64,000 bases of DNA. Origin: Candidatus Jorgensenbacteria bacterium GW2011_GWB1_50_10 (GTDB taxonomy: Bacteria; Patescibacteriota; Minisyncoccia; UBA6257; GWB1-50-10). The notes beneath the pieces are model-generated. The model worked only from the letters and a program-made list of their open reading frames with translations, did not search any database and was not told the origin of the DNA. The translations under genes and the position numbers were made by a program. The stretch is taken from assembly GCA_001004105.1 (NCBI GenBank), contig LCQK01000002.1, positions 347 through 64,346 on the forward strand, given 5' to 3'. Below are positions 5,568 through 58,769 of this stretch, in pieces (the first letter of the stretch is position 1; each line of letters starts with the position of its first letter).

Positions 5568-6014
5568 ATGGAAAAAATCAAAGCCCAGAAAATCAACATG
5601 ACCCAGATTTGGAGAGGCGACCGGGCGGAGGCCGTCACGGTTCTTAAAGTTGTGGGCGGCGGTGATTCTTTTTTTTCCGAGATGAAACCGGGTGATAAGA
5701 TCATTGTAAGCGGCAAGAGCAAGGGTCGGGGATTCCAAGGCGTCGTGAAGCGCCACGGTTTCCACGGCGGTCCCAAAAGCCACGGCCAGAAAGACCGGCT
5801 CCGGGCGCCGGGTTCGATCGGCGCGACCGCGCCGCAGCGGGTCATTAAAGGCAAAAAAATGGCCGGTCACATGGGGCTCACGAAAGTGACCCTGAAAAAC
5901 ATGGAGGTGGCGGAAATTCGACCGGAGGAAAAAGTCCTAATGGTGAAAGGCGCGGTACCGGGTATGAAAGGCGCTTTCGTCGTAATTCAAGAAAATTTTA
6001 AAAATGATGATTGA
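5568..6014 (+). CDS. rplC: 50S ribosomal protein L3 (short form, 148 aa)
   Basis: L3 C-terminal core (GKGFQGVVKRHGF...KMAGHMG). No in-frame alternative start is available upstream; an in-frame stop lies at 5505. Confidence 0.88.
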   Translation: MEKIKAQKINMTQIWRGDRAEAVTVLKVVGGGDSFFSEMKPGDKIIVSGKSKGRGFQGVVKRHGFHGGPKSHGQKDRLRAPGSIGATAPQRVIKGKKMAGHMGLTKVTLKNMEVAEIRPEEKVLMVKGAVPGMKGAFVVIQENFKNDD

Positions 6015-14056: not shown

Positions 14057-15328
14057 ATGGATAAAATCCTTCAGATTTGGCGGATTCCGGATTTGCGGAA
14101 AAAAATCCTGATGGTTTTGCTCTGGCTTTTGGTTTTCCGGGTTTTGGCGGCCATTCCCATTCCGGGAATTGACGCCTTTCGTCTCAACGAATTTTTCTCC
14201 TCCAACCAGCTCTTCGGCTTTTTGAACATTTTCTCCGGCGGCGGCCTTTCCAATTTGTCGGTCGTGATGCTGGGCGTCGGTCCCTACATTACGGCGGTCA
14301 TCATCATGCAACTCCTCACTATTGTTTTTCCCCAGCTCAAAAAGGCCTACTACGAAGAGGGGGCCGAGGGCCGGGCCAAATTCAACCGCTACTCGCGGTG
14401 GCTCACTCTGCCGCTTGCCGCCTTGCAGTCCTACGGATTTTTGAATCTTCTGGCTTCCCGAGAGGTCCTGCCGGCGCTCACCACCACCGGACTTTTAACC
14501 AACGTCGCCATGATTACGGCCGGGAGCATATTCCTCATGTGGATCGGCGAAATCATTTCGGAATATAAAATCGGCAACGGCGTCTCGCTCCTCATCTTTG
14601 CCGGCATTGTAAGCAGCCTGCCGCAATTCATCGTTTCGAGCGTCCTTACGTATACGCCCTCCGTGTTGCCGACCTACATTGCTTTTTTGATTTTGAGCGT
14701 GGTCGTGATTGCCGCCGTCGTCTTCGTAAACGAAGGCGAGCGGAAAATTCCCGTCTCTTACGCCAAACAAGTCCGCGGCAACCGCCTTTACGGGGGCGTG
14801 GCGACTTATCTGCCGCTCAAGGTGAACCAGGCGGGCGTGATTCCCATCATTTTTGCGATTTCCATCCTGCTTTTCCCGCAGTTCATCGCCCAGGCCGCTT
14901 CCATTTTCTCGCCGGAATTGTCGCTCAAATTGAACGAAATCGTGGTTAATATTTTCAACAATCTGGTGATTTACAGCGTGATTTACTTCCTCTTGGTCGT
15001 GGTTTTCACTTATTTTTATACCGCCATCACCTTTGACCCGAAGGAGATTTCCAAAAACTTGCAGCGTTCCGGCGGCTTCATTCCGGGCATCCGGCCGGGG
15101 GAAGCGACGGCGGAAGCCATCAGCCAAGTGGTGAGAAAGACCACGATTTTCGGAGCTTTTTTCCTCGGGTTTATCGCTATTCTGCCGAACCTCACCCAGC
15201 TTGTGACGGGAATCCAGACCTTGACCATCGGGGGCACGGCGCTCCTCATTGTCGTTGCCGTTGCGCTTGAAGTGATGAAGCAGATTGAATCGCAACTGAC
15301 GGTGCGCGAATACGAGGGGATTTTGTAA
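14057..15328 (+). CDS. secY: Preprotein translocase subunit SecY
   Basis: 10-TM protein with conserved SecY blocks; follows rplO. Confidence 0.95.
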   Translation: MDKILQIWRIPDLRKKILMVLLWLLVFRVLAAIPIPGIDAFRLNEFFSSNQLFGFLNIFSGGGLSNLSVVMLGVGPYITAVIIMQLLTIVFPQLKKAYYEEGAEGRAKFNRYSRWLTLPLAALQSYGFLNLLASREVLPALTTTGLLTNVAMITAGSIFLMWIGEIISEYKIGNGVSLLIFAGIVSSLPQFIVSSVLTYTPSVLPTYIAFLILSVVVIAAVVFVNEGERKIPVSYAKQVRGNRLYGGVATYLPLKVNQAGVIPIIFAISILLFPQFIAQAASIFSPELSLKLNEIVVNIFNNLVIYSVIYFLLVVVFTYFYTAITFDPKEISKNLQRSGGFIPGIRPGEATAEAISQVVRKTTIFGAFFLGFIAILPNLTQLVTGIQTLTIGGTALLIVVAVALEVMKQIESQLTVREYEGIL

Positions 15329-15522
15329 ACCTTTTCTTCCCCACGCCAGACGGCTTCGGCTCGGGCGATTTCGTCCCGCTTCGGCGGGACTCAACCCTTC
15401 GCTCGCTTTAGATTCGGTGATATGATGCGTCATATCACCGAATAGCTCGCTCATCCACGACTGCGGTCGGGACTCCGCCGAAGAGTTGAGGGGTAAGTCT
15501 GGCTTTGGGGAAGAAAAGGTTT
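15325..15522. repeat. Composite ~200-nt palindromic element. Its 22-bp terminal inverted repeats are derived from the 26-nt family-B motif. It contains a perfect GTCCCGC-TTCG-GCGGGAC hairpin and a central 13-bp-stem hairpin (TTCGGTGATATGA-TGCG-TCATATCACCGAA).
   Basis: 5' arm AAACCTTTTCTTCCCCACGCCAGAC at 15327-15351 overlaps the secY stop. Its reverse complement lies at 15497-15522. Confidence 0.6.
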
Positions 15523-15552
15523 TTAGCTTGTGTAATTTGGATAAAAAACGCC

Positions 15553-15590
15553 CCGCGACGAACTGTGTCGCGGGGGTGTTGCTTGTTCGG
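15553..15590 (-). terminator. Hairpin CCCCGCGAC-N7-GTCGCGGGG with a T-run on the - strand; likely terminator of the - strand ORF 15595..15858
   Basis: 9-bp GC stem. The reverse-complement flank is CGTTTTTTATCC. Confidence 0.45.
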
Positions 15591-15594
15591 TGCG

Positions 15595-15858
15595 TCAGAG
15601 AGCTACCGCTAAGCCGCCCTCCACTCGGATGGGGCCGAAGCCGTTGATCGCCCGTAGCCAGGTCTTGTCATCATTGACTCGGACCCACAACCACGGAAGC
15701 ACCGTTGGGGTGTAGCGCCACCAGCGTTGGCCGCAAGGGCACGTGAAGAAATTCATTTCGTCGTGTGCGAATGGGTCTTGGTCTTCGTCCGGGTGTACGA
15801 AAGGCCAACGGGAGCTGCTTGCTTCAACTTCTTGGCACCGGCAGTTAGTATTGGGCAT
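15595..15858 (-). CDS. Small Cys/Trp-rich hypothetical protein (CxC...CPC) inserted between secY and adk
   Basis: 87-aa ORF with an AAGGAG Shine-Dalgarno sequence 7 nt upstream, its own terminator, and GC-rich composition. Confidence 0.4.
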   Translation of the reverse strand: MPNTNCRCQEVEASSSRWPFVHPDEDQDPFAHDEMNFFTCPCGQRWWRYTPTVLPWLWVRVNDDKTWLRAINGFGPIRVEGGLAVAL

Positions 15859-15936
15859 CAGTGCTCCTTTTGGTGTGTGGTCAAAATCTATTGGTCAACT
15901 TGAAACACAATATTATAATTCAGTTTTTTAGTCAAT

Positions 15937-16659
15937 TTGAAGCATTCTAAGTTAATAATTGCTACAATAAACTTAATGTCTAAACAAGCAGTTGTAATTT
16001 ATGGCCCTCCGGGTTCTGGCAAGGGGACGCAGGCGGAACTCCTGGAGAGCAAATACAGTTTCATTCATTTTGACACCGGCAAGTATATTGAGTCGCTGGT
16101 TCATGACCCGGAACTCCGGAAAAATTCGCTTATTAAGCGAGAGAAAAAATTGTTTGATAGTGGAACACTTAACACGCCGGCTTGGGTGCTTAGCATCGTA
16201 AAAGATGCGACGATTAAAATCGCCCGCGCGGGCTACAGCATAATTTTCAGCGGTTCGCCGAGAACGCTTTTTGAAGCGTTGGGCGACAGGAGCCACGGCG
16301 GGCTTTTGGCGGCGCTCATTAATCTTTTTGGTCGTAGAAACATCACTATTCTCAAGCTCTCTGTCCGGCCGCAAACTTCCATCAAAAGGAATTCCAGCCG
16401 GCTTGTTTGCTCCGTTTGCGGCTTGCCGATTCTTGCGGCCTCCAAGATTAAAAATTGCGCTTTGTGCGGCGCACCCGCCCGGAAAAGGATTTTTGACAAT
16501 CCGAAGCTCATTAAAGTGCGGTTGAAGCAATACGAAGACCGCACCTTGCCGATTATTCAGAAAGCGAAAAAATTGGGTTTGAAAGTCGTGCAGATAAACG
16601 GCGAGCCCGCACCTTACAAAGTCCACGCGAGTGTTATCAGAGCTTTGAAATTAAAGTGA
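15937..16659 (+). CDS. adk: Adenylate kinase (long form with a Cys4 lid)
   Basis: P-loop GPPGSGKGTQ; lid CSVCG...CALCG; conserved position after secY. Confidence 0.85.
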   Translation: MKHSKLIIATINLMSKQAVVIYGPPGSGKGTQAELLESKYSFIHFDTGKYIESLVHDPELRKNSLIKREKKLFDSGTLNTPAWVLSIVKDATIKIARAGYSIIFSGSPRTLFEALGDRSHGGLLAALINLFGRRNITILKLSVRPQTSIKRNSSRLVCSVCGLPILAASKIKNCALCGAPARKRIFDNPKLIKVRLKQYEDRTLPIIQKAKKLGLKVVQINGEPAPYKVHASVIRALKLK

Positions 16660-17423
16660 AGATCAGATTAAAGAACGAAAAAGACCTGCAAGCTTTGAGG
16701 CAGTCGGGGCTCATTCTCGCCTCTGTTTTGGAACTTTTGAAAGACACGGCCAGAGTCGGCGTGAAGTTGTCGCATTTGGATGAGCTCGCGCGCCGTCTTA
16801 TTGAAGAGGCGGGCGGCAAGCCCGCGTTTCTTGGTTACCGGCCGGAGGGGGCTCTAAAGCCCTACCCTGCCTCTATTTGCACATCCGTAAACGAAACACT
16901 GGTGCATGGTTTGCCTACGAACTATATTTTGAAATCTGGCGATGTTTTGAAGCTTGATGCGGGCGTAAATTACAAGGGATATTTCACCGATGCGGCGATT
17001 ACCGTCCCGATGGGCGAGGTTTCCAGTGAGGCGAAAAAGCTCATTCAGACGACTAAAGAAGCCCTGGAAAAAGGTATTGAGGCCTGTGTGCCTGGTAACC
17101 GCTCTGGCGATATCGGCCACGCTATAGAGAGTGTTGTTAAGAAACATGGGTTCGCGGTCATTCAAAATCTCACCGGTCACGGCGTGGGTTTTGCGCTCCA
17201 CGAGGAGCCGGACATTTACAACTTCGGCGAGAAGGGGAAGGGAATAGTTTTGGAGCCGGGGATGGTGCTCGCAATTGAGCCGATGGTGGCCGTGAAATCT
17301 TCGCGGGTGTTGCAAAAAGAAGACGACAGTTTTGTGACCGAAAAAGGCGACTTATCCGCCCACTTTGAGCATACGGTGGCGATAACCGAGAAAGGACCGG
17401 AAATCCTTACTCGGTTGGTTTAA
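16656..17423 (+). CDS. map: Methionine aminopeptidase type I
   Basis: Pita-bread fold metal ligands (D..D..H..E..E pattern); 255 aa. Confidence 0.93.
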   Translation: MKIRLKNEKDLQALRQSGLILASVLELLKDTARVGVKLSHLDELARRLIEEAGGKPAFLGYRPEGALKPYPASICTSVNETLVHGLPTNYILKSGDVLKLDAGVNYKGYFTDAAITVPMGEVSSEAKKLIQTTKEALEKGIEACVPGNRSGDIGHAIESVVKKHGFAVIQNLTGHGVGFALHEEPDIYNFGEKGKGIVLEPGMVLAIEPMVAVKSSRVLQKEDDSFVTEKGDLSAHFEHTVAITEKGPEILTRLV

Positions 17424-17472
17424 TTTCCGGTTTTTTATCAGGAAGCAAGTAGGAAGCAAAGCGATAAATTAT

Positions 17473-17496
17473 GTCAGTATGACATGTCATACTGAC
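17473..17496. promoter_or_regulatory. Perfect 24-nt palindrome GTCAGTATGACATGTCATACTGAC, 2 nt from the 3' end of the TrpR-like gene
   Basis: Perfect dyad, seen directly in the sequence. Confidence 0.5.
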
Positions 17497-17498
17497 TA

Positions 17499-17951
17499 TC
17501 ACAACGAAGGGTGCAGGTAGACTTTCCCGTACTTGGTGCGTCGGTATCTTCGATAGGGTTTCTTTTTGGAAGGGTGGCGGCTCCATACTTTCTTTTTCCG
17601 CTCTGTTTTACCTCGTTCCCGGTAGCTCTTGTAATTCCTTTCTTTGATAGCTTTTCTTATGCTATTTATGGTTTGCCGGGAAATTAGGAGTCCTCTTGAG
17701 ATTTGCTGCGGCCTCTTCCCTGAATTTACAAATTCTGCCACCGCGGCGCGCATGACTATATTGCGGCGCTCATTGGCGGTGACGAGTGTTTCCAAAAATT
17801 TTCCGGATTTGGTTATTCTGTCCCAGCAAGCTTTCTCCCAATCTTTACGTGAAGAATATTCACTTCTCGGCGGCAATAAGAACGAACCCGCGCCCATATT
17901 GTTGATTTTAGCCATAAACAAGTTAAGTTTAACATATTTAATGTATGACAT
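17499..17951 (-). CDS. TrpR/YerC/YecD-like helix-turn-helix protein
   Basis: The block ANERRNIVMRAAVAEFV..GKRPQQISRGLLISRQTINSIRKAI fits the TrpR-like HTH pattern. The start codon is the centre of a palindrome. Confidence 0.5.
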   Translation of the reverse strand: MSYIKYVKLNLFMAKINNMGAGSFLLPPRSEYSSRKDWEKACWDRITKSGKFLETLVTANERRNIVMRAAVAEFVNSGKRPQQISRGLLISRQTINSIRKAIKERNYKSYRERGKTERKKKVWSRHPSKKKPYRRYRRTKYGKVYLHPSL

Positions 17952-17958
17952 GTCATAC
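17943..17958. promoter_or_regulatory. Perfect 16-nt palindrome GTATGACATGTCATAC overlapping the start codon of the TrpR-like gene
   Basis: Same core as the 17473-17496 palindrome. Confidence 0.5.
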
Positions 17959-18087
17959 TACCACTCTGTCTACTGTGAGGGGTTATTGATTTTTGGTCGG
18001 GGATAAACTATAACGATTTTAGTCCATTCCACCGTCGCTGATACGGGATTCGTCCTGTGGCGACACTACCAAGAGAGGAGCCTGACA

Positions 18088-18702
18088 ATGGATTCGTCCA
18101 ACAGGGTTCAGCTTTTAACCGAGGGTTTGCAAGTCAACCCCGGCGACCTATCGCCCGAAGAGCGGGTTAGAGTCATGAGGTACTGGATTAACGGGGGACG
18201 CACCTATTTCCAGTATCTTCCCACATTTCGTCCTCTCCGCGATAGGATAGGTTCTTCACAGGAGTCTGACCGGACAAGAAGGCCGGTCGGTGACAACGTC
18301 GTCAATCTTGAGTTTAAAGAAAATGCTTGGGGTGGCGGCGTTGATAGTCGTCTCAGAGTTGCCGACATCAAGCGTCTTCAGTACTCACTAGACGGTAACA
18401 TCGAACTCAGGACGACTATCCTTCTCAGTGAGCGGGGTCTTTTCTTACTCGAGCAGATGAGGTTGGAACTCACACGAGTAGATGGCTTTATACATGAAAC
18501 CCTTCGTGGCTACACAGGGCGCTTGCTCTGTGACGCCGACGTTGTCCAGCACGAGAGCACGAGCTCGTTCTTCGAGGAGACTCTCCGCATCATCGTGGAG
18601 AGCATGCGGCGTGCGGGTCAGGATAAAGTCGACTGGGGTAAGGTGTTGCTGTACAGAGCGGACCAGATGCAAGAGCGACTCGGCACAGCAGTGAGGTGGT
18701 AA
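18088..18702 (+). CDS. Hypothetical protein (GC-rich, strong GAGAGGAG Shine-Dalgarno sequence)
   Basis: 204-aa ORF preceded by a strong SD; no recognisable motif. Confidence 0.45.
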   Translation: MDSSNRVQLLTEGLQVNPGDLSPEERVRVMRYWINGGRTYFQYLPTFRPLRDRIGSSQESDRTRRPVGDNVVNLEFKENAWGGGVDSRLRVADIKRLQYSLDGNIELRTTILLSERGLFLLEQMRLELTRVDGFIHETLRGYTGRLLCDADVVQHESTSSFFEETLRIIVESMRRAGQDKVDWGKVLLYRADQMQERLGTAVRW

Positions 18703-18716
18703 GCGTAGGTAGCGAC

Positions 18717-18760
18717 GGGGCTCGGGAGAGCAAAACTCCCGGGCCCTGTTTGTTTTTATA
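18717..18760 (+). terminator. Rho-independent terminator (CGGGAG-N7-CTCCCG followed by a T-run)
   Basis: Stem-loop followed by GTTTGTTTTT. Confidence 0.5.
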
Positions 18761-18796
18761 ATTCCTCGGGCCGGCGTTTTGGGTTTTGTTTTCTCC

Positions 18797-18824
18797 ATTC
18801 GCCAATTCGCGCGAATTGGCGAAT
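18797..18824. repeat. Perfect 28-nt palindrome ATTCGCCAATTCGC|GCGAATTGGCGAAT
   Basis: Seen directly. Its core TTCGCGCGAA is shared with the palindrome at 42696-42731. Confidence 0.5.
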
Positions 18825-19241
18825 AGTCGCTTTTACCGTTCCGGGAACTTTCCGGGATGGGGTTGGTGGGGGGTTATTAAGCAGTTGGATTTTTGGTTTT
18901 ATTTCTAATATAAATAGATTGACGGTCGTCGGTTAAGTCCGACCTCTGGGTTATGGGTAGCTTGGAATCTGCCCGTTATCAACGAGACCGCCTTCTGCCC
19001 CCATTACCCCGGTTGCGGGGTTATAATCCGAGGAAATCTCCGTCCAAAGGAAAACAAAGGGGAATCGGAGCTCTCAATCGGCCAAGCGATAGAGGGGTAG
19101 CCTAACGCCTTGGTCCAGAAAATCGGACCAAGGCGTTGCTCATTTTCATTTCATCGGGCCGGCGTTTTGGGTTTTTAAAATGCGAACAGCCCCGAAAATT
19201 TCTCGGGGCCGTTTGGCGCAGTAACTGCTCCGTCGCGGGGT

Positions 19242-19532
19242 TCAAAAGAGCAGTTCTTTTACTAGTTGGTCGTTCTGGGCGACCATGATTTTGTTACCTT
19301 GGGCGCGCTCGTCGAGCAGGTGCTCGTAGATGCGAAGGGCGTTGCGTACTAATTCGGCGAAAGTGATGGCATCAGATTTTGCCTTGACGTCTTTCAAGCG
19401 CTTGTAGGTTTCATTTGAAAACTGGAACTGCAACCGATGCCCCGCCGACCGTCCTTTTCGAGCCCTTTTCATTATTAGCTCCCGTGATTTGTGTGCCAAA
19501 TCCAGCGTGCCACAGGTTCTTTTAAGAGTCAA
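19242..19532 (-). CDS. Ribbon-helix-helix (CopG/Arc-like) DNA-binding protein
   Basis: Block HRLQFQFSNETYKRLKDVKAKSDAITFAELVRNALRIY resembles an RHH fold; the start is probably the internal Met. Confidence 0.4.
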   Translation of the reverse strand: MTLKRTCGTLDLAHKSRELIMKRARKGRSAGHRLQFQFSNETYKRLKDVKAKSDAITFAELVRNALRIYEHLLDERAQGNKIMVAQNDQLVKELLF

Positions 19533-19578
19533 ATAAATGAACCTTCAACACTAGAAATTTTATAAATTTCCATACTAA

Positions 19579-19812
19579 CTAAGAAGTGGTCTCAATTTTA
19601 ATAAAATCTATTTTATATTGACGTTCTTTAGATGGGTCAAGATGAATTCCTGAATAAGTCCATCCTGGAATATCAGCAACAAAGCTAGTAACTTCTTTAC
19701 AATCAAATGTCGCGACAATAAAATCATCCTTTGGGTTAGGAAAAATAATATTAGTACAACCCATTTTCTCTAAAGCCTCTTTAATTTTCATTAAGATATC
19801 GTTTTTATCCAT
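19579..19812 (-). CDS. Hypothetical small protein (AT-rich island)
   Basis: 77-aa ORF immediately downstream of the ClpP-like gene; about 33% GC. Confidence 0.4.
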   Translation of the reverse strand: MDKNDILMKIKEALEKMGCTNIIFPNPKDDFIVATFDCKEVTSFVADIPGWTYSGIHLDPSKERQYKIDFIKIETTS

Positions 19813-19817
19813 ATTTT

Positions 19818-20363
19818 TTAGTTAATAATTACTATATCTTCTCTTAATACTCCTTTCGGTGGTATTTCTAGATGATTGATGGCTTGCACAATCCCACATT
19901 GAAGTGCTTGTTGTGCAGTAATACTTGTTCCGGTTTTCATCATGTTTTGAACTTTTTGAAGATCTAAACTGCAATTCTCGGAAATAAAATAAGCTATACG
20001 AGTACTCTCTGTTTTTACTGCTAAAAGTTGTTCATTAAGTCCCTTCTCGTCAAATATACCTTGTGTTGTCGCTCCATGCATATAGAATTTTGCATAAGAT
20101 TCTGCCGTTCTCTCTTTTGCGGAAAGATATATCACATTCGCAATAGAATCAATATTATTAGTAGCATGGATAGAAATGGGAATTTTGCAATTTTGAATAA
20201 CAGAAGCTAACGTGAATCCTTCCTGCGTACTCCCTCCTAATGAAGAAAACAATAAAATAATTTTTTTAGCACCTTGTTGAGTAGCGTTATTAACTGCGTT
20301 TAGCAATCTATTACCAAAACCCTGTTCAATTATCCCAGCGAAAACGATATAATAATCCATCAC
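19818..20363 (-). CDS. ClpP/crotonase-fold serine-protease-like protein (S14/S49 class)
   Basis: Aligns by eye to ClpP: LLFSSLGGS against the ClpP SPGGS block, a TNNIDS Ser position, and a FYMHGA His position. AT-rich. Confidence 0.55.
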   Translation of the reverse strand: MMDYYIVFAGIIEQGFGNRLLNAVNNATQQGAKKIILLFSSLGGSTQEGFTLASVIQNCKIPISIHATNNIDSIANVIYLSAKERTAESYAKFYMHGATTQGIFDEKGLNEQLLAVKTESTRIAYFISENCSLDLQKVQNMMKTGTSITAQQALQCGIVQAINHLEIPPKGVLREDIVIIN

Positions 20364-20409
20364 GGTTAAATTATATGTATAAATTTATTTTAAAGATACC
20401 CAACCTTCT

Positions 20410-20787
20410 TCAACTCTTAACAGCAATCATACTTATCTCAACCCGGGCGCCGAGGGGGAGTTCCTTGACGCAAACCGTTTCGCGGGCGGGGAATGGCTCC
20501 GACATATAGCTTCCGTACACTTCATTCACCTCGCCGTAAAGAGATATATCGGTTACGTAAATCGTAGTTTTGACCACATCCTTAAATGACACCCTAGCCG
20601 CCTCAAGAATCGCTTGCAAATTTTTCATTGCTTGGTGAGTTTGTTCTTCAATGCTCCCCTCAAGTGGTTTCCCCTCCGGCGTTAAGTGTACCTGTCCTGA
20701 AGTAAAAACCATATTGCCGTCTACAACCGCCTGCGAGAAAGGACCAGTTGCTTTTGGGGCTTTTGGAGTTTCAATTTTTTTCTTCAT
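20410..20787 (-). CDS. ridA: RidA/YjgF family reactive-intermediate deaminase
   Basis: 125 aa with conserved YjgF blocks (GPFSQAV..G...F.SGQ). Confidence 0.85.
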   Translation of the reverse strand: MKKKIETPKAPKATGPFSQAVVDGNMVFTSGQVHLTPEGKPLEGSIEEQTHQAMKNLQAILEAARVSFKDVVKTTIYVTDISLYGEVNEVYGSYMSEPFPARETVCVKELPLGARVEISMIAVKS

Positions 20788-20798
20788 TGAGAAATTTT

Positions 20799-21236
20799 TT
20801 AAAAGACTTTGCTGCTGATTTCAATTTTCACTCCCTTGATATAATTTTCTATTGATTTATGAACCCCTAATTTCATAGCTTCCTCCGGTGATTTCCAAAA
20901 GAATTCCTTAAGTTCTCTATCATCCAGTTTTACATCATCCGTCAGCGCTTCGCAGAGAACATGGAAATATACGAGGTGGGCTTTTCTATGAAAAGCGGGG
21001 TCATTAATCAGTTCTCCAATATTCACGCAATAGAGGGGCTTAAGTTTCAGTCCTGTTTCTTCTTCACCCTCTCTTTTTGCGGCCTCTAAAATTGTTTCGC
21101 CGAGCTCCACATGTCCTCCGGGGAGAAGATATTTCTCACCCCATTTGTGTGATTTTATGAGTAGAACTTTTTTCTCTCTATTCACAATAAGTGCAGAAGC
21201 AACCACCTCAGCATAATTGTAATTTTTAGGTGTCAT
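20799..21236 (-). CDS. NUDIX hydrolase
   Basis: Nudix box GGHVELGETILEAAKREGEEETG. The start is trimmed to the internal Met to avoid overlap with the upstream gene. Confidence 0.8.
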   Translation of the reverse strand: MTPKNYNYAEVVASALIVNREKKVLLIKSHKWGEKYLLPGGHVELGETILEAAKREGEEETGLKLKPLYCVNIGELINDPAFHRKAHLVYFHVLCEALTDDVKLDDRELKEFFWKSPEEAMKLGVHKSIENYIKGVKIEISSKVF

Positions 21237-21260
21237 GTTTAGAGATATTAGATTGATTAT

Positions 21261-21286
21261 ATAAACCTTTTCTTTTCTAAGCCAGA
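21261..21286 (+). repeat. 26-nt family-B motif ATAAACCTTTTCTTTTCTAAGCCAGA
   Basis: Identical to the copy at 58570-58595. About 25 nt upstream (on the - strand) of the NUDIX start. Confidence 0.6.
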
Positions 21287-21304
21287 TTTTGAAATAGTGG
21301 GGGA

Positions 21305-22093
21305 TTATCTTCTGATAATAAAATAAAACCCCGGGTATACCATTCCATGGAGACCCTTCTGCGGCTCTTTGCTCTCCAATTGGTTGTTGATTTCCCAATC
21401 ATGAGTCATCGCGTAATGCAAACCGACAAGACCATCCTCGGCCGGAGGATTTTCGCAATAATAACCGTCAACTTGGTCGGAAAGAAGCGTAACCTTGGCT
21501 CCAAAACCGAGTGATAGTTCCTTACCGTTTATAAATTTGTAGCCGCGCTTTTCAATTTCTTGCCACATAGCTTCGGGTATCTTTTTGATTGGGTCGCCGT
21601 ACGGGTAAGTAATGATCTTATTTCCGTTTGCTGAAAGATTCAGCGTTGGCCGTTTTCCGGATTCTTGGTGCTCCTTGCCGATAAATTTGTGAGTCCAGTC
21701 CATTGCCGGGTAGTGGTCAAAGGTGTATAGAGGCAGGCCGTCTTTCTGAATGCTAATAATTAGGCTGTAAATCGGCTCACGGGCGGCATAGCGATACGTC
21801 CCGTCAATTGGGTCTACTGTCAGTAAAAATTCCCCTTCCGGGTCAAATTTGTCCACCAAATCTGTTTTTTCTTCGGCAATCAGACGGCATTGAATAAGCT
21901 CCGTTTTGCTGATGGCGGACAATACCGCTTCTTGAACTGCAAAGTCCGCTTCGGTAACCACGTCAACCTCATCGATTCCCGTACTCTTCTTTTTCTTAGG
22001 AGATATTTCCCGCTGCATCTTCACGGCAATTTTACCCGCCTCAATAAAGGCGGGTTCTAATTTCTTAATCGTTTCTAGATAACTCTCAATCAT
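21305..22093 (-). CDS. Inositol monophosphatase family protein (SuhB/CysQ-like)
   Basis: DPIDGT motif; 262 aa. Confidence 0.82.
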   Translation of the reverse strand: MIESYLETIKKLEPAFIEAGKIAVKMQREISPKKKKSTGIDEVDVVTEADFAVQEAVLSAISKTELIQCRLIAEEKTDLVDKFDPEGEFLLTVDPIDGTYRYAAREPIYSLIISIQKDGLPLYTFDHYPAMDWTHKFIGKEHQESGKRPTLNLSANGNKIITYPYGDPIKKIPEAMWQEIEKRGYKFINGKELSLGFGAKVTLLSDQVDGYYCENPPAEDGLVGLHYAMTHDWEINNQLESKEPQKGLHGMVYPGFYFIIRR

Positions 22094-22102
22094 TTTTCAA
22101 TT

Positions 22103-22128
22103 ATAAACTTTTTCTTTCCTAAGCCAGA
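22103..22128 (+). repeat. 26-nt family-B motif variant ATAAACTTTTTCTTTCCTAAGCCAGA
   Basis: 2 substitutions relative to the 21261 copy. 10 nt upstream (on the - strand) of the IMPase-family start. Confidence 0.6.
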
Positions 22129-22233
22129 CACAATTTAAAACTATTGACAAATAACGTAATTTTTGATTCTATTTAAGACAGTTATTTCTGCAGCCGTGCA
22201 AGGCGGCCCCGGCCTCGGGCAGAGGCGAATTTT

Positions 22234-22815
22234 TTGGCAACCAGCCGAGAAAGGCAGGTTCGTATGAAGTACGGGGAACTTACGCTGGGCCAGGTGGAGG
22301 CGATGGTGAATAAGGTCGGCGGCATGGATGGCGTGAAGCGTCTCCTTGCGGGTGAACTTGCGGTCGGCCCGAAGTGGGAAGTTGAGAGCGTCTTCCGCAT
22401 CGACTGCTGGGGTGATCAAACAGCGAGCGAACTCGTCCGGCTCGGCCAATACGACCGGGTAAATGATTTCGTGACGGACGAGCGATTTCCGCTCGTAAGG
22501 CACGACCCCGAGGAGCGCGTGGTTGAGCTCATTAAACTCGCCAACAAATCGACCTCAGAAGAAGTGCTCCGTGAGTTGGAGGTACGCGGTCTTGCCCGGC
22601 CCACAGCCGAAGACGCTCTCTACTTCGGGAGGAAGTATCTTAGAGAGCAACAGAAGCGCCCAATCGTCTTCCTACATGAGCCGGTGCTTGTCCCGGGTGG
22701 TGACCGCGTCGTTCTCGTCCTGGGCGGGTACGCTTCGAGGCGGAATTTGGACCTGCTCTGGTTTGGATATCGGTGGGATCGGTTCTACGCCTTCGCTGGT
22801 GTCCACAAGAAGTAG
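22234..22815 (+). CDS. Hypothetical protein
   Basis: 193-aa ORF, GC-rich, no recognisable domain. Confidence 0.4.
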   Translation: MATSRERQVRMKYGELTLGQVEAMVNKVGGMDGVKRLLAGELAVGPKWEVESVFRIDCWGDQTASELVRLGQYDRVNDFVTDERFPLVRHDPEERVVELIKLANKSTSEEVLRELEVRGLARPTAEDALYFGRKYLREQQKRPIVFLHEPVLVPGGDRVVLVLGGYASRRNLDLLWFGYRWDRFYAFAGVHKK

Positions 22816-22882
22816 AAGATCATCTAGTTCTTGGCAGTCAACGGCTGCGTGAGCAATCACGCAGCCGTTTCTCATTTTTCTA

Positions 22883-27201: not shown

Positions 27202-27922
27202 GTTGCTGGAAAAGAAATGGCGGAAGTTTTTGCGCCTCCGGCCGGTTTTTTCGTTCATTCCTTTTCTGGATTTCGTGATTGTTTCGGGTTCTTTAGCCAC
27301 CGGTAACGTTCACGAGAATTCGGATTTTGACGTAATTGTGGGCGCGCGAAAAGGTAAGATTTTCACGGTGCGGGCTTTCTGCGTTTTCGTTTTCGGGATT
27401 TTAGGCCTGCGGCGGCGGGGGATAGACCACAAAGCAGCGTCCAGCGATAAAGTTTGTTTCAATCACTTCGTGACACCGAAGGCCTATCGGCTTTCGCCGC
27501 CCTACAACGATTACTGGGTGAAGCTTTACCAGAATCTCGTGCCGGTTTATGGCAGAGAAAAGGCGGTAAGGGATTTTTTCCGGGCTAACGATTGGGCACT
27601 GCCTGCCGGCAGGCAGGGGCCACGCGAGACAATTTTCAGCGAAAAGTACTGGCAGAGCACAAACCCCAATCCTGCAGGTGGTATACATATGTATACCACC
27701 TGGATTTTAAAGACTTTCTTTGAGTTTGTTTTGCAGGGCTGGATCTTGGGCCGGGTTTTTGAAAAGTTCGTGAAAATCATAGAGCTCCATTACATCAAAA
27801 AGGGAATCAAGAACGGCGCTTTGGGTTTCAAGCCGCGCGTCCGCTACGGCGACGACGAATTGGAATTTCACCCCGACACCGCCCGGATTGAGGAGATGCT
27901 CAAAGAGGACTTGCGTTTTTAG
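27167..27922 (+). CDS. Nucleotidyltransferase-domain protein (Pol-beta-like NTase fold)
   Basis: Motif GSLATG(N5)SDFDVIV followed by a downstream acidic residue; 35-nt overlap with rmuC. Confidence 0.55.
   Translation: MMDREAQTKRNKLLEKKWRKFLRLRPVFSFIPFLDFVIVSGSLATGNVHENSDFDVIVGARKGKIFTVRAFCVFVFGILGLRRRGIDHKAASSDKVCFNHFVTPKAYRLSPPYNDYWVKLYQNLVPVYGREKAVRDFFRANDWALPAGRQGPRETIFSEKYWQSTNPNPAGGIHMYTTWILKTFFEFVLQGWILGRVFEKFVKIIELHYIKKGIKNGALGFKPRVRYGDDELEFHPDTARIEEMLKEDLRF
27674..27701. repeat. Perfect 28-nt palindrome CAGGTGGTATACAT|ATGTATACCACCTG (family C) inside the NTase CDS
   Basis: Core GGTGGTATACATATGTATACCACC is identical to the copy at 40495-40518. Confidence 0.7.
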
Positions 27923-40451: not shown

Positions 40452-40487
40452 TAACTAAAAATTCAGCAACTAAGAATTTAGTGACTA

Positions 40488-40528
40488 AAACCAAGGTGGT
40501 ATACATATGTATACCACCTTGGTTTTTT
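40488..40528 (+). terminator. Family-C palindrome AAACCAAGGTGGTATACA|TATGTATACCACCTTGGTTT followed by TTTTT; rho-independent terminator
   Basis: 18-bp stem followed by a T-run, after the DUF1653 gene. Confidence 0.6.
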
Positions 40529-40601: not shown

Positions 40602-40970
40602 CTAGGAGTGCAGGGAACTCCAGCGGCCTCGGCCGTAGGAAGCGGGGTATTTTTGAAATTTATTCCTTTTAGGAAATTTTGAGTAAATTTTCTTTTTATA
40701 ATTGAGTTTTTTCAGGCCGCGCTTGATGAAAATCACGGTTTTTCTCGCGACGTCAGCTTTCTTGCTAGTTTCTCTCAAGCTTTCACCCTGCTTCAGGAAA
40801 TAAAGAGCAGCCAATCTTTTTTCCAAAATGACTTTTTCTTCTTCGGTTAGGAATTTTGAAAGAAAATCCGCCGGGCCGGATTTCTTGGATTTTTCAACCT
40901 CGGCCCAGAAAATTTTCCAAATCTCCTTTCTCAATCCCTCGCTAAAATTTTTCCTATTAGTTCTCGGCAT
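40602..40970 (-). CDS. TrpR/YerC/YecD-like helix-turn-helix protein
   Basis: Block EEEKVILEKRLAALYFLKQGESLRETSKKADVARKTV. The start is set at the internal Met; the listed ORF extends to 41024. Confidence 0.55.
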   Translation of the reverse strand: MPRTNRKNFSEGLRKEIWKIFWAEVEKSKKSGPADFLSKFLTEEEKVILEKRLAALYFLKQGESLRETSKKADVARKTVIFIKRGLKKLNYKKKIYSKFPKRNKFQKYPASYGRGRWSSLHS

Positions 40971-40972
40971 GG

Positions 40973-40996
40973 GTGGTATACTTAAGTATACCACCG
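40973..40996. promoter_or_regulatory. Family-C palindrome variant GGTGGTATACTTAAGTATACCACC, abutting the start of the TrpR-like gene
   Basis: Perfect 24-nt dyad, 2 nt from the ATG. Confidence 0.5.
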
Positions 40997-41148
40997 GGGA
41001 TTGAAATAGGAAGTGGCTGGGCATAAAATTGACAAAGGTATTAATATTTGACTGGGGGCAGACGCTTTACGGCGGTTTTCCCCAAGTATTCGGAGAAAAT
41101 TAAAAAAATACGGCCTCATTGTGATAGAGTTGTGATAAAATTAATACA

Positions 41149-43094: not shown

Positions 43095-43182
43095 ATTTCA
43101 TTAGATTCCGATCCCCACAGTCTTTTTTATTTCATTATATTTGGTATACGCTATAAACTTGAGGTATGATATAATAAGAAAA

Positions 43183-43848
43183 ATGGGGAAAAGGGGACCG
43201 AAGCCGAAAAGAAAGGTGGAAATCAGATGGTCGCCGGAATTTGCTTATGCCCTCGGGCTTTTGGCTACCGATGGGAATCTTTCTTCGGATGGCCGGCACC
43301 TTGATCTCACTTCTCAAGATAAAGAACAGCTTTTGAATTTTATGAAATGTCTTAGGATCAAGGTGGAAATTGGTTATAAAACTTCCGGGTTGAGCGGAGA
43401 AAGAACAGCCCGGGTTCAGTTCGGAGATGTCAATTTTTATAAATTTTTATTAAACATCGGTTTTTCACCCAACAAGTCGAAAACCATAGGGAGATTGGAT
43501 ATTCCGGATAAGTATTTCTTTGATTTTCTCCGAGGTCATTTTGACGGCGACGGTACTTTTTATTCTTATTGGGATCCGCGCTGGAGGTCGAGTTTTATGT
43601 TTTACACGGTTTTCATTTCGGCCAGCAAAGGTCATATTCAGTGGTTGAGAAAAAAAATTAATGAAACGTTGCCTATAAAGGGGCACATAACCAAGAGTAA
43701 AACCCAATCCACTTATAATCTTAAATACGCTAAAAGAGAATCATTAAAATTACTGAAAAAAGTTTATTATTCTCATAAAGTAATTTGCCTTTCTCGCAAA
43801 CGTTTGAAGATTGAAAAAGCTTTGGCTATAATGGGAGCGAAGCTATAA
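43183..43848 (+). CDS. LAGLIDADG homing endonuclease (double-motif, free-standing)
   Basis: Motifs LGLLATDGNLS and LRGHFDGDGTF; AT-rich; TATAAT about 10 nt upstream. The listed ORF starts at TTG 43141. Confidence 0.75.
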   Translation: MGKRGPKPKRKVEIRWSPEFAYALGLLATDGNLSSDGRHLDLTSQDKEQLLNFMKCLRIKVEIGYKTSGLSGERTARVQFGDVNFYKFLLNIGFSPNKSKTIGRLDIPDKYFFDFLRGHFDGDGTFYSYWDPRWRSSFMFYTVFISASKGHIQWLRKKINETLPIKGHITKSKTQSTYNLKYAKRESLKLLKKVYYSHKVICLSRKRLKIEKALAIMGAKL

Positions 43849-43849
43849 T

Positions 43850-43934
43850 GCCCAGGTGGCGGAACTGGAATACGCGTGCGTTCGAGGGGCGCATGCCGCA
43901 AGGCTTGCGGGTTCAAATCCCGCCCTGGGCACCA
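43850..43934 (+). tRNA. tRNA-Leu, type II with a long variable arm; anticodon most likely GAG; CCA encoded
   Basis: Acceptor GCCCAGG/CCTGGGC; T arm GCGGG-TTCAAAT-CCCGC; 13-nt variable arm; discriminator A. Alignment to canonical tRNA-Leu(GAG) puts GAG at positions 34-36 but gives C at position 33. A reading as Ser-CGA would need a G-G mismatch in the anticodon stem. Confidence 0.7.
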
Positions 43935-44001
43935 GTAAGGAATTTGCAAGCAAGAAACGAATTGGCGGTTTCGTTTGGGGGAAAGAAAAATTTTTAATCA
44001 T

Positions 44002-44451
44002 ATGGAAACAGAAAATACAACTTTCAGTTATGCTGGCTTTTGGAAAAGATTTGCCGCTTTTATCATAGATATGTTTATCGTGTCTATCGGTGGCTTTATT
44101 ATTGGTTTTATATTCGGAGTTCCCTACGATGTTCTCACTGGTAAAGCCGAGTTCGCTGGATTTGCCGAAGATTATATTCTTAGTTTCATTTTGAGTTTTT
44201 TGCTTGTTTGGATTTACCAAGCAGTTATGGAAAGTTCTTCTAAACAAGCGACTCTTGGCAAAATGGCTCTTGGAATAATAGTTACTGATTTGTCTGGCAA
44301 GCGTGTATCTTTCGGAAAGGCATCGGGTCGCTACTTTGGGCAGATACTTTCCGGGTTTATCCTCGGCATAGGATTTCTCATGATTGCTTTTACTGCAAGA
44401 AAACAGGGGCTTCACGATAAAATGGCTGGTTGTCTTGTTGTGAATAAATAA
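44002..44451 (+). CDS. RDD-family membrane protein
   Basis: Blocks FWKRFAAFIIDMFI and ATLGKMALGI...GLHDKMAGCLVV are typical of RDD. Confidence 0.65.
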   Translation: METENTTFSYAGFWKRFAAFIIDMFIVSIGGFIIGFIFGVPYDVLTGKAEFAGFAEDYILSFILSFLLVWIYQAVMESSSKQATLGKMALGIIVTDLSGKRVSFGKASGRYFGQILSGFILGIGFLMIAFTARKQGLHDKMAGCLVVNK

Positions 44452-44831
44452 TGTTTCCATATCGCCGATTTTTATTTCCCCGAGAAGACTATCCGGAAAA
44501 TTGGGACGAATTGAGAAAAGCGGTTTATCGCAGAGACGGATGGCAATGTCAGCAGTGCGGTGCTAGAAATATCCAACTCCACGCCCACCACCAAACTCCG
44601 TTGTCTGCGGGTGGCTCTAACGACATGAGCAACCTGATTACTCTTTGTAAAAATTGTCATATTGATGACCATCCGCACATGTGGTGGGGTAGGTGGAAAG
44701 AAAACAATCCCCAAACCGTTCTCGCACTTCGTATTATTGTTCTCGCCATAGCAATCTCGTTACTTATAATATCTGGCTTTAGTTGGTGGAAAGTTATAAT
44801 TTTAATAATTGTACTTCGACCTTTATTCTGA
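44451..44831 (+). CDS. HNH endonuclease domain protein with a C-terminal transmembrane anchor
   Basis: Block CQQCG...LHAHHQ...NL..LCKNCH, followed by a hydrophobic LALRIIVLAIAISLLIISGFSWWKVIILIIV tail. Confidence 0.65.
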   Translation: MFPYRRFLFPREDYPENWDELRKAVYRRDGWQCQQCGARNIQLHAHHQTPLSAGGSNDMSNLITLCKNCHIDDHPHMWWGRWKENNPQTVLALRIIVLAIAISLLIISGFSWWKVIILIIVLRPLF

Positions 44832-44844
44832 TTTAATATGAATT

Positions 44845-44932
44845 GCCGCCAAAGAAAAACTTGAAATTGTCAGCGGTGCGGCTCTGCCGCCAAAGAAAAA
44901 CTTGAAATTGTCAGCGGTGCGGCTCCGCCGCC
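44845..44932. repeat. 41-nt tandem direct repeat x2.1 (GCCGCCAAAGAAAAACTTGAAATTGTCAGCGGTGCGGCTCY) upstream of gyrB
   Basis: Seen directly; the units differ at one position. Confidence 0.8.
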
Positions 44933-57058: not shown

Positions 57059-57412
57059 ATGGAGATAGGAACAACTAGAGAGACCAAGGATCAGTTGGTT
57101 TCTCGAGTCAAGCAGGTGCTCGAAAGGTATCTGCTTGGGGATCCGGGACCCACTAGGATCGAGAAAGATCCGATCTGGGGGAGAATCGCCGCCGAGTACA
57201 TCATCAGCAGATCGCTGGTGATTGCTGCGGTCGATCCTCTCGAGCTCGCTCAGCGAGTCGATCCCAAACTCTTCCGGCTCGTCACTGTTCCGGAAGGTTG
57301 GGCGAATCGCGCCGACTGGGCACTCGGGGTATACCTGACATTCGGGAATGGTTCTATGCCCGAAAAGGTCAGTCGTATACTCGAGACGGCGAGTTCGATG
57401 ATTCCCGAATAG
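57059..57412 (+). CDS. Hypothetical protein (GC-rich, GGAGGAGG Shine-Dalgarno sequence)
   Basis: 117-aa ORF with a strong SD. Confidence 0.4.
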   Translation: MEIGTTRETKDQLVSRVKQVLERYLLGDPGPTRIEKDPIWGRIAAEYIISRSLVIAAVDPLELAQRVDPKLFRLVTVPEGWANRADWALGVYLTFGNGSMPEKVSRILETASSMIPE

Positions 57413-57843
57413 GGAACCGGCCGGGGTTCACCACCACCCCCGGAAAGAGGTGGGAGCGAGCCGAAGCTCGCGCGCAAGGCGTCGTGGAAGTTCACGGCGC
57501 TTTTTGTTTTAGTAAGAAGACCCGTTCCATAGGTTTTTCGAGTTGGGATTTGTAGAGTTTATATTAATGCTGTAAAATGCAAATATGTTGAAAGCAATAT
57601 TGAGTGCCTAGGCCGGAGTCGGGGATCCTCATATGGGCACAAAAGTTAGATCAGAGTTTTTCAGCCGGAGTCGGAACCCCTCATTGCTTCTCACATGAAA
57701 AATTGAGAAGGATTCAGTGAATAGAAACCGCTTTAACGGCGGTTTCTGTCACTACAGAACATCTAAATATAGGAGATAATCATTGAGAAATCAGAAGATT
57801 GACGGTACTAGACCGTTTACATTATGCTGATAGCCCTACCGTC

Positions 57844-57867
57844 AACGGCTAGCCGTTAAGGTATAAT
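57844..57867 (+). promoter_or_regulatory. 14-nt palindrome AACGGCTAGCCGTT followed by a TATAAT -10 box, upstream of the HicB-like gene
   Basis: Palindrome at 57844-57857; TATAAT at 57862-57867; GTG start at 57874. Confidence 0.4.
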
Positions 57868-57873
57868 AAAAAT

Positions 57874-58281
57874 GTGAGAATAGATAACAATATCATCCCG
57901 GTAATATTAGTGGTTTATAAGTCAAAGAATGGTTATTGGCATGGTTTTTGCCACCCATACGATGTGTCTTGTAATGCAGAAATTAAAGAAGAGGTTATAA
58001 ACAACCTAGAAGAATTGGTGGAAACCTACGAAAAATCGTTAGAGCGCTATGGGAACCCAATACATCTAATAGAGAAGAAACTTTCTGATAAAGAAGATCA
58101 AGAGAAGTTCAAGAAAATATGGCCGTATGTTTCTAAAAAGATTGCGGAGCATATTAAAACCGCACATAGTCCTATTCGATACTCTCAATATTTATCACGA
58201 GCCAAGAAATTCAGTATTAAATCTGGAGCAGATATAACTTATTCTCACAGAAGTTTATCGTTAACACCCTCACCTCGCTGA
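57874..58281 (+). CDS. HicB-like (UPF0150) antitoxin-like protein; AT-rich
   Basis: N-terminal pattern IPVILVVYKSKNGYWHGFCHPYDVSCNAEIKEEVINNLEE resembles the HicB N-terminus. Confidence 0.3.
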   Translation: MRIDNNIIPVILVVYKSKNGYWHGFCHPYDVSCNAEIKEEVINNLEELVETYEKSLERYGNPIHLIEKKLSDKEDQEKFKKIWPYVSKKIAEHIKTAHSPIRYSQYLSRAKKFSIKSGADITYSHRSLSLTPSPR

Positions 58282-58285
58282 TATT

Positions 58286-58564
58286 GTGGCGGCGCCGACA
58301 GATATTAATTTTGATGATTTCTATGAAGCAGTTAAATCATTAGCTGCACAAAAAGGATTTATTTGTAAACCCTATAAGGGTAAGAAAGCTTCTGCTATAT
58401 GTTTTGAATTTTTCCGAGATGGAGAAAATAAACCGTTTGAGATATTTTGCGTTCATGAAGATAAGAAAAATAGAGTTATATGGTCAGATGATCTCAAAAA
58501 GGCATGTAAAGCGTTAGGAGTAACTAAAAAAGAATTTATTGATTTTACAAAAAATAAAGTTTAA
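58286..58564 (+). CDS. Hypothetical small protein (possibly HicA-like); AT-rich
   Basis: 92 aa, basic, 4-nt gap from the upstream gene. Confidence 0.3.
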   Translation: MAAPTDINFDDFYEAVKSLAAQKGFICKPYKGKKASAICFEFFRDGENKPFEIFCVHEDKKNRVIWSDDLKKACKALGVTKKEFIDFTKNKV

Positions 58565-58569
58565 CTAAT

Positions 58570-58595
58570 ATAAACCTTTTCTTTTCTAAGCCAGA
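58570..58595 (+). repeat. 26-nt family-B motif ATAAACCTTTTCTTTTCTAAGCCAGA (identical to the 21261 copy)
   Basis: Seen directly, 6 nt after the stop of the upstream + gene. Confidence 0.65.
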
Positions 58596-58614
58596 ATTAT
58601 TCTTCCCAACTAAA

Positions 58615-58769
58615 AAATCTGCCCCGCGTGTGTCTCTGACGGCAACTCTCGGAGGCAAAAAAGCTCGGTGTCGCCTGAGGCGACTTTTTCGCCGAGAGCG
58701 TAGCGGTGCGCCTTGCTGCTGGAGCGGGGCGACACCCGGTGGCGGAGGAGATATACGCGGGGCAGATTT
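58615..58769. repeat. Nested inverted-repeat structure: AAATCTGCCCCGCG ... CGCGGGGCAGATTT flanking CTCTCGG...CCGAGAG and GTCGCC-TGAG-GCGAC; the 3' arm overlaps the dnaE stop
   Basis: Seen directly; 14-bp outer arms. Confidence 0.5.

Follow-up and report, generated by a model that had tools for sequence, protein, structure and literature searches.

The window, by which we mean the whole 64,000-nt stretch of DNA that was analysed, comes from a Jorgensenbacteria genome of the candidate phyla radiation (CPR), obtained from Rifle groundwater metagenomes (PRJNA268031); exact-protein matches carry the NCBI name Candidatus Jorgensenbacteria bacterium GW2011_GWA1. It carries a ribosomal protein operon up to secY (14057-15328), adk, map, and a 5.4-kb accessory stretch, and further topA-dprA, secA, ATP synthase, gyrB, thrS, and dnaE. 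GC3 of the accessory genes is 0.18-0.49, compared to about 0.6 for the core genes. The features that bear on the analysis are listed here, the short repeat at its centre being called the motif.

15328-15523, no strand assigned: 196-nt MITE-like element with degenerate motif copies as terminal inverted repeats, around a GC-rich core with three hairpins
17424-22882, no strand assigned: hypervariable stretch between map and topA, the site of the motif arrays in the window and in the relatives L019, L048, and L055
20799-21236, - strand: NUDIX gene, putatively driven by the 21261 motif copy
21256-21286, - strand: motif copy lying past the IMPase-family stop (21305) and before the NUDIX gene, with CTGGCT at 21285-21280, an 18-nt spacer, TATAAT at 21261-21256, 19 nt, and ATG at 21236
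21305-22093, - strand: IMPase-family (PF00459) accessory gene with direct motif copies on both sides
22100-22128, - strand: motif copy before the IMPase-family gene, with CTGGCT at 22127-22122, a 16-nt spacer, TATAAT at 22105-22100, 6 nt, and ATG at 22093
57874-58564, + strand: low-GC two-gene module (135 aa + 92 aa, GC3 0.33/0.18), HicB/HicA-like by eye, with no Pfam hit
58567-58595, - strand: gene-less motif copy, with CTGGCT, 16 nt, and TATATT
58615-58769, - strand: branched terminator-like element past the dnaE stop, with a closing stem of 23 bp and then a T-run

Between genomes, only secY, map, topA, and dprA align across the hypervariable locus, and in all four genomes with synteny information the motif copies occupy the same map-topA stretch. 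The 58570 copy lies in the gap between dnaE and thrS, which measures 23 nt in the relative L107 versus 1.7 kb in the window; the whole block, consisting of a 117-aa gene, the toxin-antitoxin-like module, the 58570 copy, and the terminator-like structured element, is absent in L107. The right end of the HicB/HicA-like module adjoins this copy, with the HicA-like stop 6 nt away, and the copy itself is found 14 nt past the T-run of the dnaE 3′ structured element and is directed into the HicA-like gene in antisense. The dnaE 3′ element is a neighbour of this copy, separate from the motif. Its homologues follow other genes in L019 (13259-13368) and L029 (6306-6379), and 8 pairs are kept by compensatory changes among the 3 sequences. 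In appearance it is a complex terminator or a 3′ RNA element that is conserved in Jorgensenbacteria. A 15-nt piece of the same element (TGACGGCAACTCTCG) was also seen between two motif copies in L055. In the region 57059-58595, the 117-aa gene is GC-rich and has a Shine-Dalgarno (SD) sequence, and two direct repeats CCGGAGTCGG(G/A)A..CCTCAT lie at 57611-57690.

Other features of the window and its surroundings were noted in their own right. Immediately left of window position 1 (L099 50-1810) lies a 586-aa large serine recombinase (Resolvase + Recombinase + Zn_ribbon_recom), directly upstream of a Peptidase_M50-like gene and the rpsL operon. A 540-nt non-coding region (18703-19241) has a 28-nt palindrome at 18797-18824 and two TCGGGCCGGCGTTTTGGGTTTT copies (18762 and 19150); it showed no Rfam match at E<=1 and may hold an unrecognised RNA gene. 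A second non-coding motif, the G-quadruplex-like CGGGATGGGGTTGGTGGGG, is shared 19/19 between window 18853-18871 and L002 592-610, and its core GATGGGGTTGGTGG is present in L104 at about 1035 (reverse complement). Perfect palindromes of the family AGGTGGTATACATATGTATACCACCT occur at 27676-27709, 40486-40526, and 40971-41003, and also at about 15650 in L101; two of the copies flank a Trp_repressor-like gene (40602-41024), and the palindrome may serve as an operator or as a hairpin terminator. In relatives, perfect hairpins of a similar kind (GTGATATGA..TCATATCAC, GGCACTACGCTATAGCGTAGTGCC) are found repeatedly behind genes. At 43141-44925, ORFs for LAGLIDADG-like and HNH endonucleases stand beside a tRNA-Leu gene (43850-43934), and an exact 41-nt tandem duplication comes after them at 44844-44925.

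The 26-mer ATAAACCTTTTCTTTTCTAAGCCAGA was found with no mismatch at 21261-21286 and 58570-58595 and with 2 mismatches at 22103-22128, always on the + strand, and none of 100 dinucleotide-preserving shuffles matched it, giving three near-exact copies where zero were expected. Pattern search and shuffling thus bore out the initial annotation, which had described three copies in one orientation, two of them identical at 26/26 positions and the third with 2 substitutions. Identity between the first two extends over 28 nt (21259-21286 = 58568-58595), outside of which their flanks are unrelated. The degenerate copies that had been suspected near 15325 and, in reverse complement, 15497 are also real; they lie at 15326-15351 (+) and 15497-15523 (reverse complement, with a 1-nt indel), and a single 196-nt element has them as its terminal inverted repeats. 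With an nhmmer profile, the 21261 and 22103 copies scored E values of 3.9e-6 and 8.5e-5, respectively.

The distribution of the motif was observed by scanning 80 SecY-centred loci from GTDB genomes with a position weight matrix (PWM) and nhmmer. Among these loci, copies were present only in the three closest relatives (L055, L019, and L048; SecY 82% identity). The nhmmer profile gave 15 matches at or above 15.4 bits (E <=0.036), followed by noise at or below 13.0 bits (E >=0.2), in about 1.5 Mb of related CPR DNA. The search in related genomes that had been proposed as a check returned a narrow answer: all 15 matches belong to this species and four close relatives, and nearly all of them are in the hypervariable map-topA stretch. 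L055 has three motif copies, including an 'empty' pair 56 nt apart, L019 has three copies of the variant TATAACCCTTTTCTTTTTyGAGTCGAT, and L048 has one degenerate copy that is orthologous to one of the L019 copies. The metagenome contig L002, from a different organism, has two copies in the same orientation. Two independent assemblies (the L002 and L103 contigs) break inside the arm, as we call the repeated unit, which suggests a multi-copy repeat in that genome.

Searches in wider collections added little to this list. Scanning for the motif pattern yielded no match in GTDB species genomes, no match in IMG/VR viral contigs, and only 2 matches in JGI metagenomes (same organism; L002), and since the JGI scan missed L007, a contig known to carry two copies, absence from it counts for little. 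No plasmid matched the 196-nt element by BLAST and no phage matched the extended arm, and the 12 kb of this genome beyond the window contained no further copy. Exact-protein matches of the IMPase-family and HicA-like proteins led only to the same strain and the same context, with no empty site or alternative context among them. The sister assembly L105 is 99.7-99.9% identical and uninformative, and an apparent indel in L005 was rejected as a run of Ns only.

For a closer view of the motif, 14 copies (5 from the window, 3 from L055, 3 from L019, 1 from L048, and 2 from L002) were aligned on a common anchor. On the strand of the downstream genes the layout is (A/G)T-CTGGCT-TAG-AAAAGAAAAGG-TTT-ATAAT. 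Most copies begin this layout with the hexamer CTGGCT, for which L055c has TTGGCT and L019 has TCGACT; the hexamer is separated from TATAAT by an A-rich spacer of 16-18 nt, whose stretch AAGAAA(A)GG is the best conserved part of the alignment. Copies are identical over 28-35 nt within one genome (21261 = 58570 in the window; L019a = L019c), and lineage-specific variants are common to all copies of the same genome.

The geometry observed relative to genes is promoter-like and close to the start codon. In four copies (22103, L002b, L055c, and L019a), only 6-7 nt separate TATAAT from the ATG, in front of four different genes in four genomes, and the predicted leader in the 21261 copy and L019c is about 12-25 nt. 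In the window, the distance of 10-25 nt between the motif and - strand starts given in the initial annotation was measured as 9 nt for the IMPase-family ATG (22093) and 24 nt for the NUDIX ATG, the NUDIX start being taken as ATG 21236 and not as the start of the longer TTG ORF; a second -10-like sequence, TAATAT, lies 8 nt upstream of this ATG. Of the TTAGAA...TATAAT boxes proposed earlier, TATAAT holds, as it adjoins the motif, and TTAGAA does not, as it is only 13 nt away; the workable hexamer is CTGGCT at 16-18 nt. A perfect TATAAT adjoins 6 of the 14 copies, and all 6 have a start codon on the same strand 6-32 nt downstream. None of the 5 gene-less copies (58570, 15327, the reverse-complement copy at 15497, L055a, and L055b) has the perfect hexamer, their matches reaching 3-5 of 6 positions; those in the window agree with the initial annotation, by which the 58570 copy and the 15325-15522 element precede no - strand genes. 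L002a, L019b, and L048 have a degraded hexamer too, and their genes carry an own -10 beside the ATG. The dependence between a perfect TATAAT and a gene reached p ~3e-4 by Fisher's test on copies that are not independent of each other. The integrity of the -10 box appears to follow need, as it is intact only where a gene would depend on the box borne by the motif.

This geometry would not be foreign to the host. SD cores were found in just 9 of 80 genes of the window, and a strong -10 ends 4-9 nt before the start codon in 12 of 80 genes, compared to 1 of 80 in a shifted control window; leaderless geometry appears to be common in this genome, and SD sequences scarce. The promoter reading has a genuine weakness in the upstream hexamer. 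Against TTGACA, CTGGCT matches at 3 of 6 positions and TTGGCT or TCGACT at 4 of 6, and an E. coli-style consensus scan requiring at least 4/6 per hexamer called no copy in the window because the -35 matches at only 3/6 positions. There is also no gene to drive for 5 of the 14 copies. Two other sigma factors were considered and rejected: a sigma-28 reading of the + strand (TAAA-N15-GCCAGA), because its -10 is unlike GCCGATAA and its + strand targets are inconsistent, and sigma-54, because the spacing of GG and GC is wrong.

The genes behind the motif are unrelated to each other, and comprise IMPase-family, NUDIX, Ser_hydrolase, Peptidase_S51, GrpB, HicB-like, and two unknown proteins. Homologous sequence before non-homologous coding sequences is thus found in one genome, with the IMPase-family and NUDIX genes in the window, and six more unrelated genes have it in relatives. 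As noted earlier, the IMPase-family gene (21305-22093, -) lies between direct copies, its stop being 18 nt from the 21261 copy. Past the NUDIX gene follow a RidA-like gene (20410-20787), a ClpP-like gene (19818-20363, GC3 0.24), and a 77-aa ORF, and the motif does not recur among them. Homologues of the IMPase-family gene (L013, L016, and L116; 57-73% identity) were found in unrelated contexts, one beside a tRNA-Leu gene, with their own -10 and no motif, and a hydrolase homologue at 83% identity also lacks the motif. The same is true for the NUDIX gene of L104 (88% DNA identity; window 20770-21260 versus L104 250-790), which is in an unrelated contig context. Its homology with the window is lost within the -10 box, at the beginning of the motif, and has its other limit about 20 nt past the stop codon; these tight bounds suggest that single genes, each with its own -10, may be the unit of rearrangement in these genomes. 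The difference between L019 and L048 begins directly after the other edge of the motif. By all these comparisons the motif behaves as a discrete, clade-specific module and does not belong to the adjoining genes.

The two degenerate copies at secY give a different view of the same unit. The 196-nt element that they close folds at -107 kcal/mol (z = -9.96 versus shuffled sequence), with its arms pairing over about 25 nt. TA stands on both sides of the element (15326-15327 and 15524-15525), a 2-nt duplication that can arise by chance. Removal of the element and one TA gives ATT TTG TAG, a plausible original secY stop as read from the sequence, and the predicted empty site would be ...GGGATTTTGTAGCTTGTGTAA... 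The insertion status is observed by comparison with relatives: secY is followed directly by adk in L055, L019, and L048, and in the window the two are separated by the 196-nt element and an 87-aa gene. The search yielded no empty site within the same species.

The element resembles a MITE in structure, and the extent of this resemblance is limited. In about 76 kb, the inverted-repeat element occurs complete just once, beside three solo arms, which is not the many copies expected of a MITE, and the shared unit of 28-35 nt is far shorter than a typical MITE. The arm of L002b runs on for about 18 nt that resemble the inner part of the inverted-repeat element of the window. Near the solo copies there was no inverted partner arm, save a weak and unconvincing resemblance at 22240-22262. 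No transposase was found among the scanned ORFs of the window. In L021, a different relative, a further GC-rich element with terminal inverted repeats (ATAGGTTTCATTGCTTA / TAAGCAATAAAGCCTAT) was noted in the same position, right after the secY stop (5680-5830), and it is followed by an AT-rich toxin-antitoxin island; the 3′ end of secY seems to act as a recurrent insertion site.

Taken together, we consider the motif to be probably a clade-specific propagated promoter arm. It would form the upstream two-thirds of a sigma-70-type promoter, comprising the weak -35-like hexamer (CTGGCT; TCGACT in one relative), the A-rich spacer with its conserved sequence (..AAGAAAAGG..), and the beginning of the -10. 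This arm may have spread as a discrete 28-35 nt block inside a narrow Jorgensenbacteria clade, and the junction of arm and gene would complete the TATAAT box, so that RNA polymerase would start at the ATG or a few bases before it, giving leaderless or short-leader mRNA. In this manner the arm could allow accessory genes that are unrelated and were acquired recently to be expressed in hypervariable regions. A pair of arms in inverted orientation closes the 196-nt hairpin-rich element that was putatively inserted at TA in the secY stop codon, and a solo copy would then be one arm, or a remnant, of such a small non-autonomous mobile element. Since the same arm closes this element in inverted pairs, it is most simply seen as the outward-facing promoter end of a mobile element. 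Both transcription initiation and the mode of spread are what we infer from the sequence.

Two readings that the initial annotation had set against each other are complementary rather than alternative, and both are partly right. The shared promoter module is the best-supported one and is supported in part, by the TATAAT adjoining the motif, the -35-like hexamer 16-18 nt from it, and the ATG 6-7 nt past the -10 in four copies from four genomes. The mobile repeat gains support from the inverted ends of the TA-flanked 196-nt element, the discrete unit, the breakpoints at its edges, the narrow clade, and the unrelated accessory neighbours. Two further observations speak against the propagated promoter arm: the spacer AAGAAA(A)GG is conserved, which a plain promoter does not require, and direct copies flank single genes in three genomes, as site-specific accretion would give. 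Because of this invariant stretch, the direct copies around single genes, and a very short unit, a recombination site similar to att and an operator have to be kept in consideration.

The main rival takes the motif as the core of an att-like recombination site, at which single-gene cassettes were inserted or accreted, either as in integrons or in tandem, with the promoter belonging to the site as in Pc/attI; we regard it as unlikely. It would account for the direct copies around the IMPase-family gene in the window, Ser_hydrolase in L002, and Peptidase_S51 in L055, for the array of three motif-gene units in L019, and for the restriction of the arrays to one syntenic hypervariable stretch. A discrete unit with unrelated flanks and breakpoints at both edges, the 'empty' pair in L055, and the variants shared by the copies of each genome fit it as well. 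However, the motif has neither dyad symmetry nor hairpin potential, and therefore fits neither attC nor the usual core of a tyrosine or serine recombinase. No integron integrase or tyrosine recombinase was found among the scanned ORFs of the window or the precomputed Pfam calls for the loci, an integrase is beside none of the arrays, and the nearest recombinase is of the large serine type, about 17 kb away. The inverted pair 15326/15497 encloses a non-coding core unlike a cassette, and the difference between L019 and L048 is not a clean motif-to-motif insertion. Two particular forms of such a site were rejected. A Xer/dif-type 28-nt site (11-6-11) would read ATATAAACCTT / TTCTTT / TCTAAGCCAGA, which shows no symmetry of the arms and no self-complementarity. 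Large serine recombinases are not known to leave long direct repeats, and their att sites were rejected on this ground. We give a still smaller chance to the bolder version, in which the unit would be the recombination site of an undescribed CPR cassette-capture system, with genes inserted at the -10 box and thereby gaining a ready leaderless promoter, and with arrays at map-topA that have no integron integrase or folded attC. A new cassette system would be indicated if the arm proved to serve recombination instead of being the end of a transposon.

It is somewhat less probable than an att-like site, and improbable by itself, that the motif is functionless debris of a small transposable element, that is, solo terminal repeats whose position at start codons reflects an insertion preference for TA-rich -10 regions. 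This explanation is consistent with the TA-flanked inverted-repeat element and its degenerate 15326/15497 arms, with the five copies that have no downstream gene, and with the fact that -10 boxes are natural TA targets and the breakpoints fall in them. It does not explain why a perfect TATAAT and a constant spacing of 16-18 nt are kept precisely before genes and lost elsewhere, nor the four exact 6-7 nt junctions with ATG before four different genes in four genomes.

An operator over the -35 and spacer, bound by a clade-specific regulator and co-regulating the accessory genes, is very unlikely in our view. In its favour, AAGAAA(A)GG is invariant although RNA polymerase makes few sequence demands on the spacer, copies of one genome vary together, and a protein bound between -12 and -38 could control initiation. 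The operator that had been suggested earlier found no specific support, though, because the motif has no dyad symmetry; the site is asymmetric, with neither a dyad nor the spaced direct repeats typical of operators. Moreover, the genes concerned share no function, no candidate regulator is linked to the motif, and the gene-less and inverted copies are left unexplained.

We hardly believe that the motif acts as RNA, either as a 3′-end/UTR motif of + strand genes (secY, HicA-like, and a small L055 ORF) or as an SD- or anti-SD-like sequence, although three copies are at or within 6 nt of + strand stop codons and the purine tract AGAAA(G)GAG can pair with the 16S 3′ tail. Solo copies, taken with their flanks, have folds of -0.3 to -1.3 kcal/mol or none, which does not exceed the stability of shuffled sequence, and they are unstructured on both strands (z > 0). 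This argues against attC-like sites, terminators, and structured RNA alike, and does not support the RNA motif of the initial annotation. Rfam 15 gave no match at the gathering threshold and none at E<=1 over 15200-22400; over 57400-58850 at E<=1 there was only a chance-level CcsR1 match outside the motif. An SD role was rejected since the purine tract and the ATG are a variable 13-42 nt apart, a distance too large for an SD sequence to work, and most copies are antisense to nothing or are upstream of minus-strand genes.

Among known systems, integron cassette arrays (Vibrio cholerae repeats) share with these loci a hypervariable chromosomal stretch in which same-orientation repeats stand between toxin-antitoxin modules and accessory genes that are single and unrelated, and the homogeneity of the repeats within a genome. 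Their attC sites are imperfect palindromes of 57-141 nt that fold, and stand 3′ of promoterless ORFs next to an intI gene. The motif, in comparison, is 28 nt long, asymmetric, and unstructured, carries a putative promoter itself, and has no integrase nearby.

A propagated promoter arm, which we prefer, has closer counterparts. Putative mobile promoters are highly similar non-coding sequences upstream of non-homologous genes in one genome, as is the motif, and among the means proposed for their spread are terminal inverted repeats that belong to mobile or non-autonomous elements (Matus-Garcia, Nijveen & van Passel 2012; PMC3488235). They were defined as 50-100 nt at >=80% identity (PMC3488235), and the unit here is only 28-35 nt, so that such a screen would miss it. 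The Correia elements of Neisseria have a 'Black' promoter whose -35 and partial -10 are contained in the element, the -10 being completed when the element inserts at TA (PMC2649163). Like the 196-nt element here, they are non-coding elements of about 100-200 nt with terminal inverted repeats of about 26 nt and a structured core. Their insertion at TA has its possible counterpart in the TA on both sides of the 196-nt element, and their outward-facing promoter in the arm with its weak -35-like hexamer and a partial -10 that the flank completes; here the -10 straddles the junction of arm and flank, and transcription is predicted. The two have no sequence similarity and are from different phyla. 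Correia elements (CREE) number more than 100 mostly complete copies per genome, versus one complete element and three solo arms in about 76 kb here, where most of the functional-looking copies are solo arms in direct orientation.

Promoters and expression signals of CPR/Patescibacteria are almost unstudied because the organisms are rarely cultured, and this repeat offers a concrete, testable promoter candidate. It suggests that tiny genomes may plug new single genes into expression via a reusable promoter arm at insertion hot spots. Most likely, it represents a clear new example, in a new phylum, of the known phenomenon of MITE-borne or propagated promoters rather than a new kind of system.
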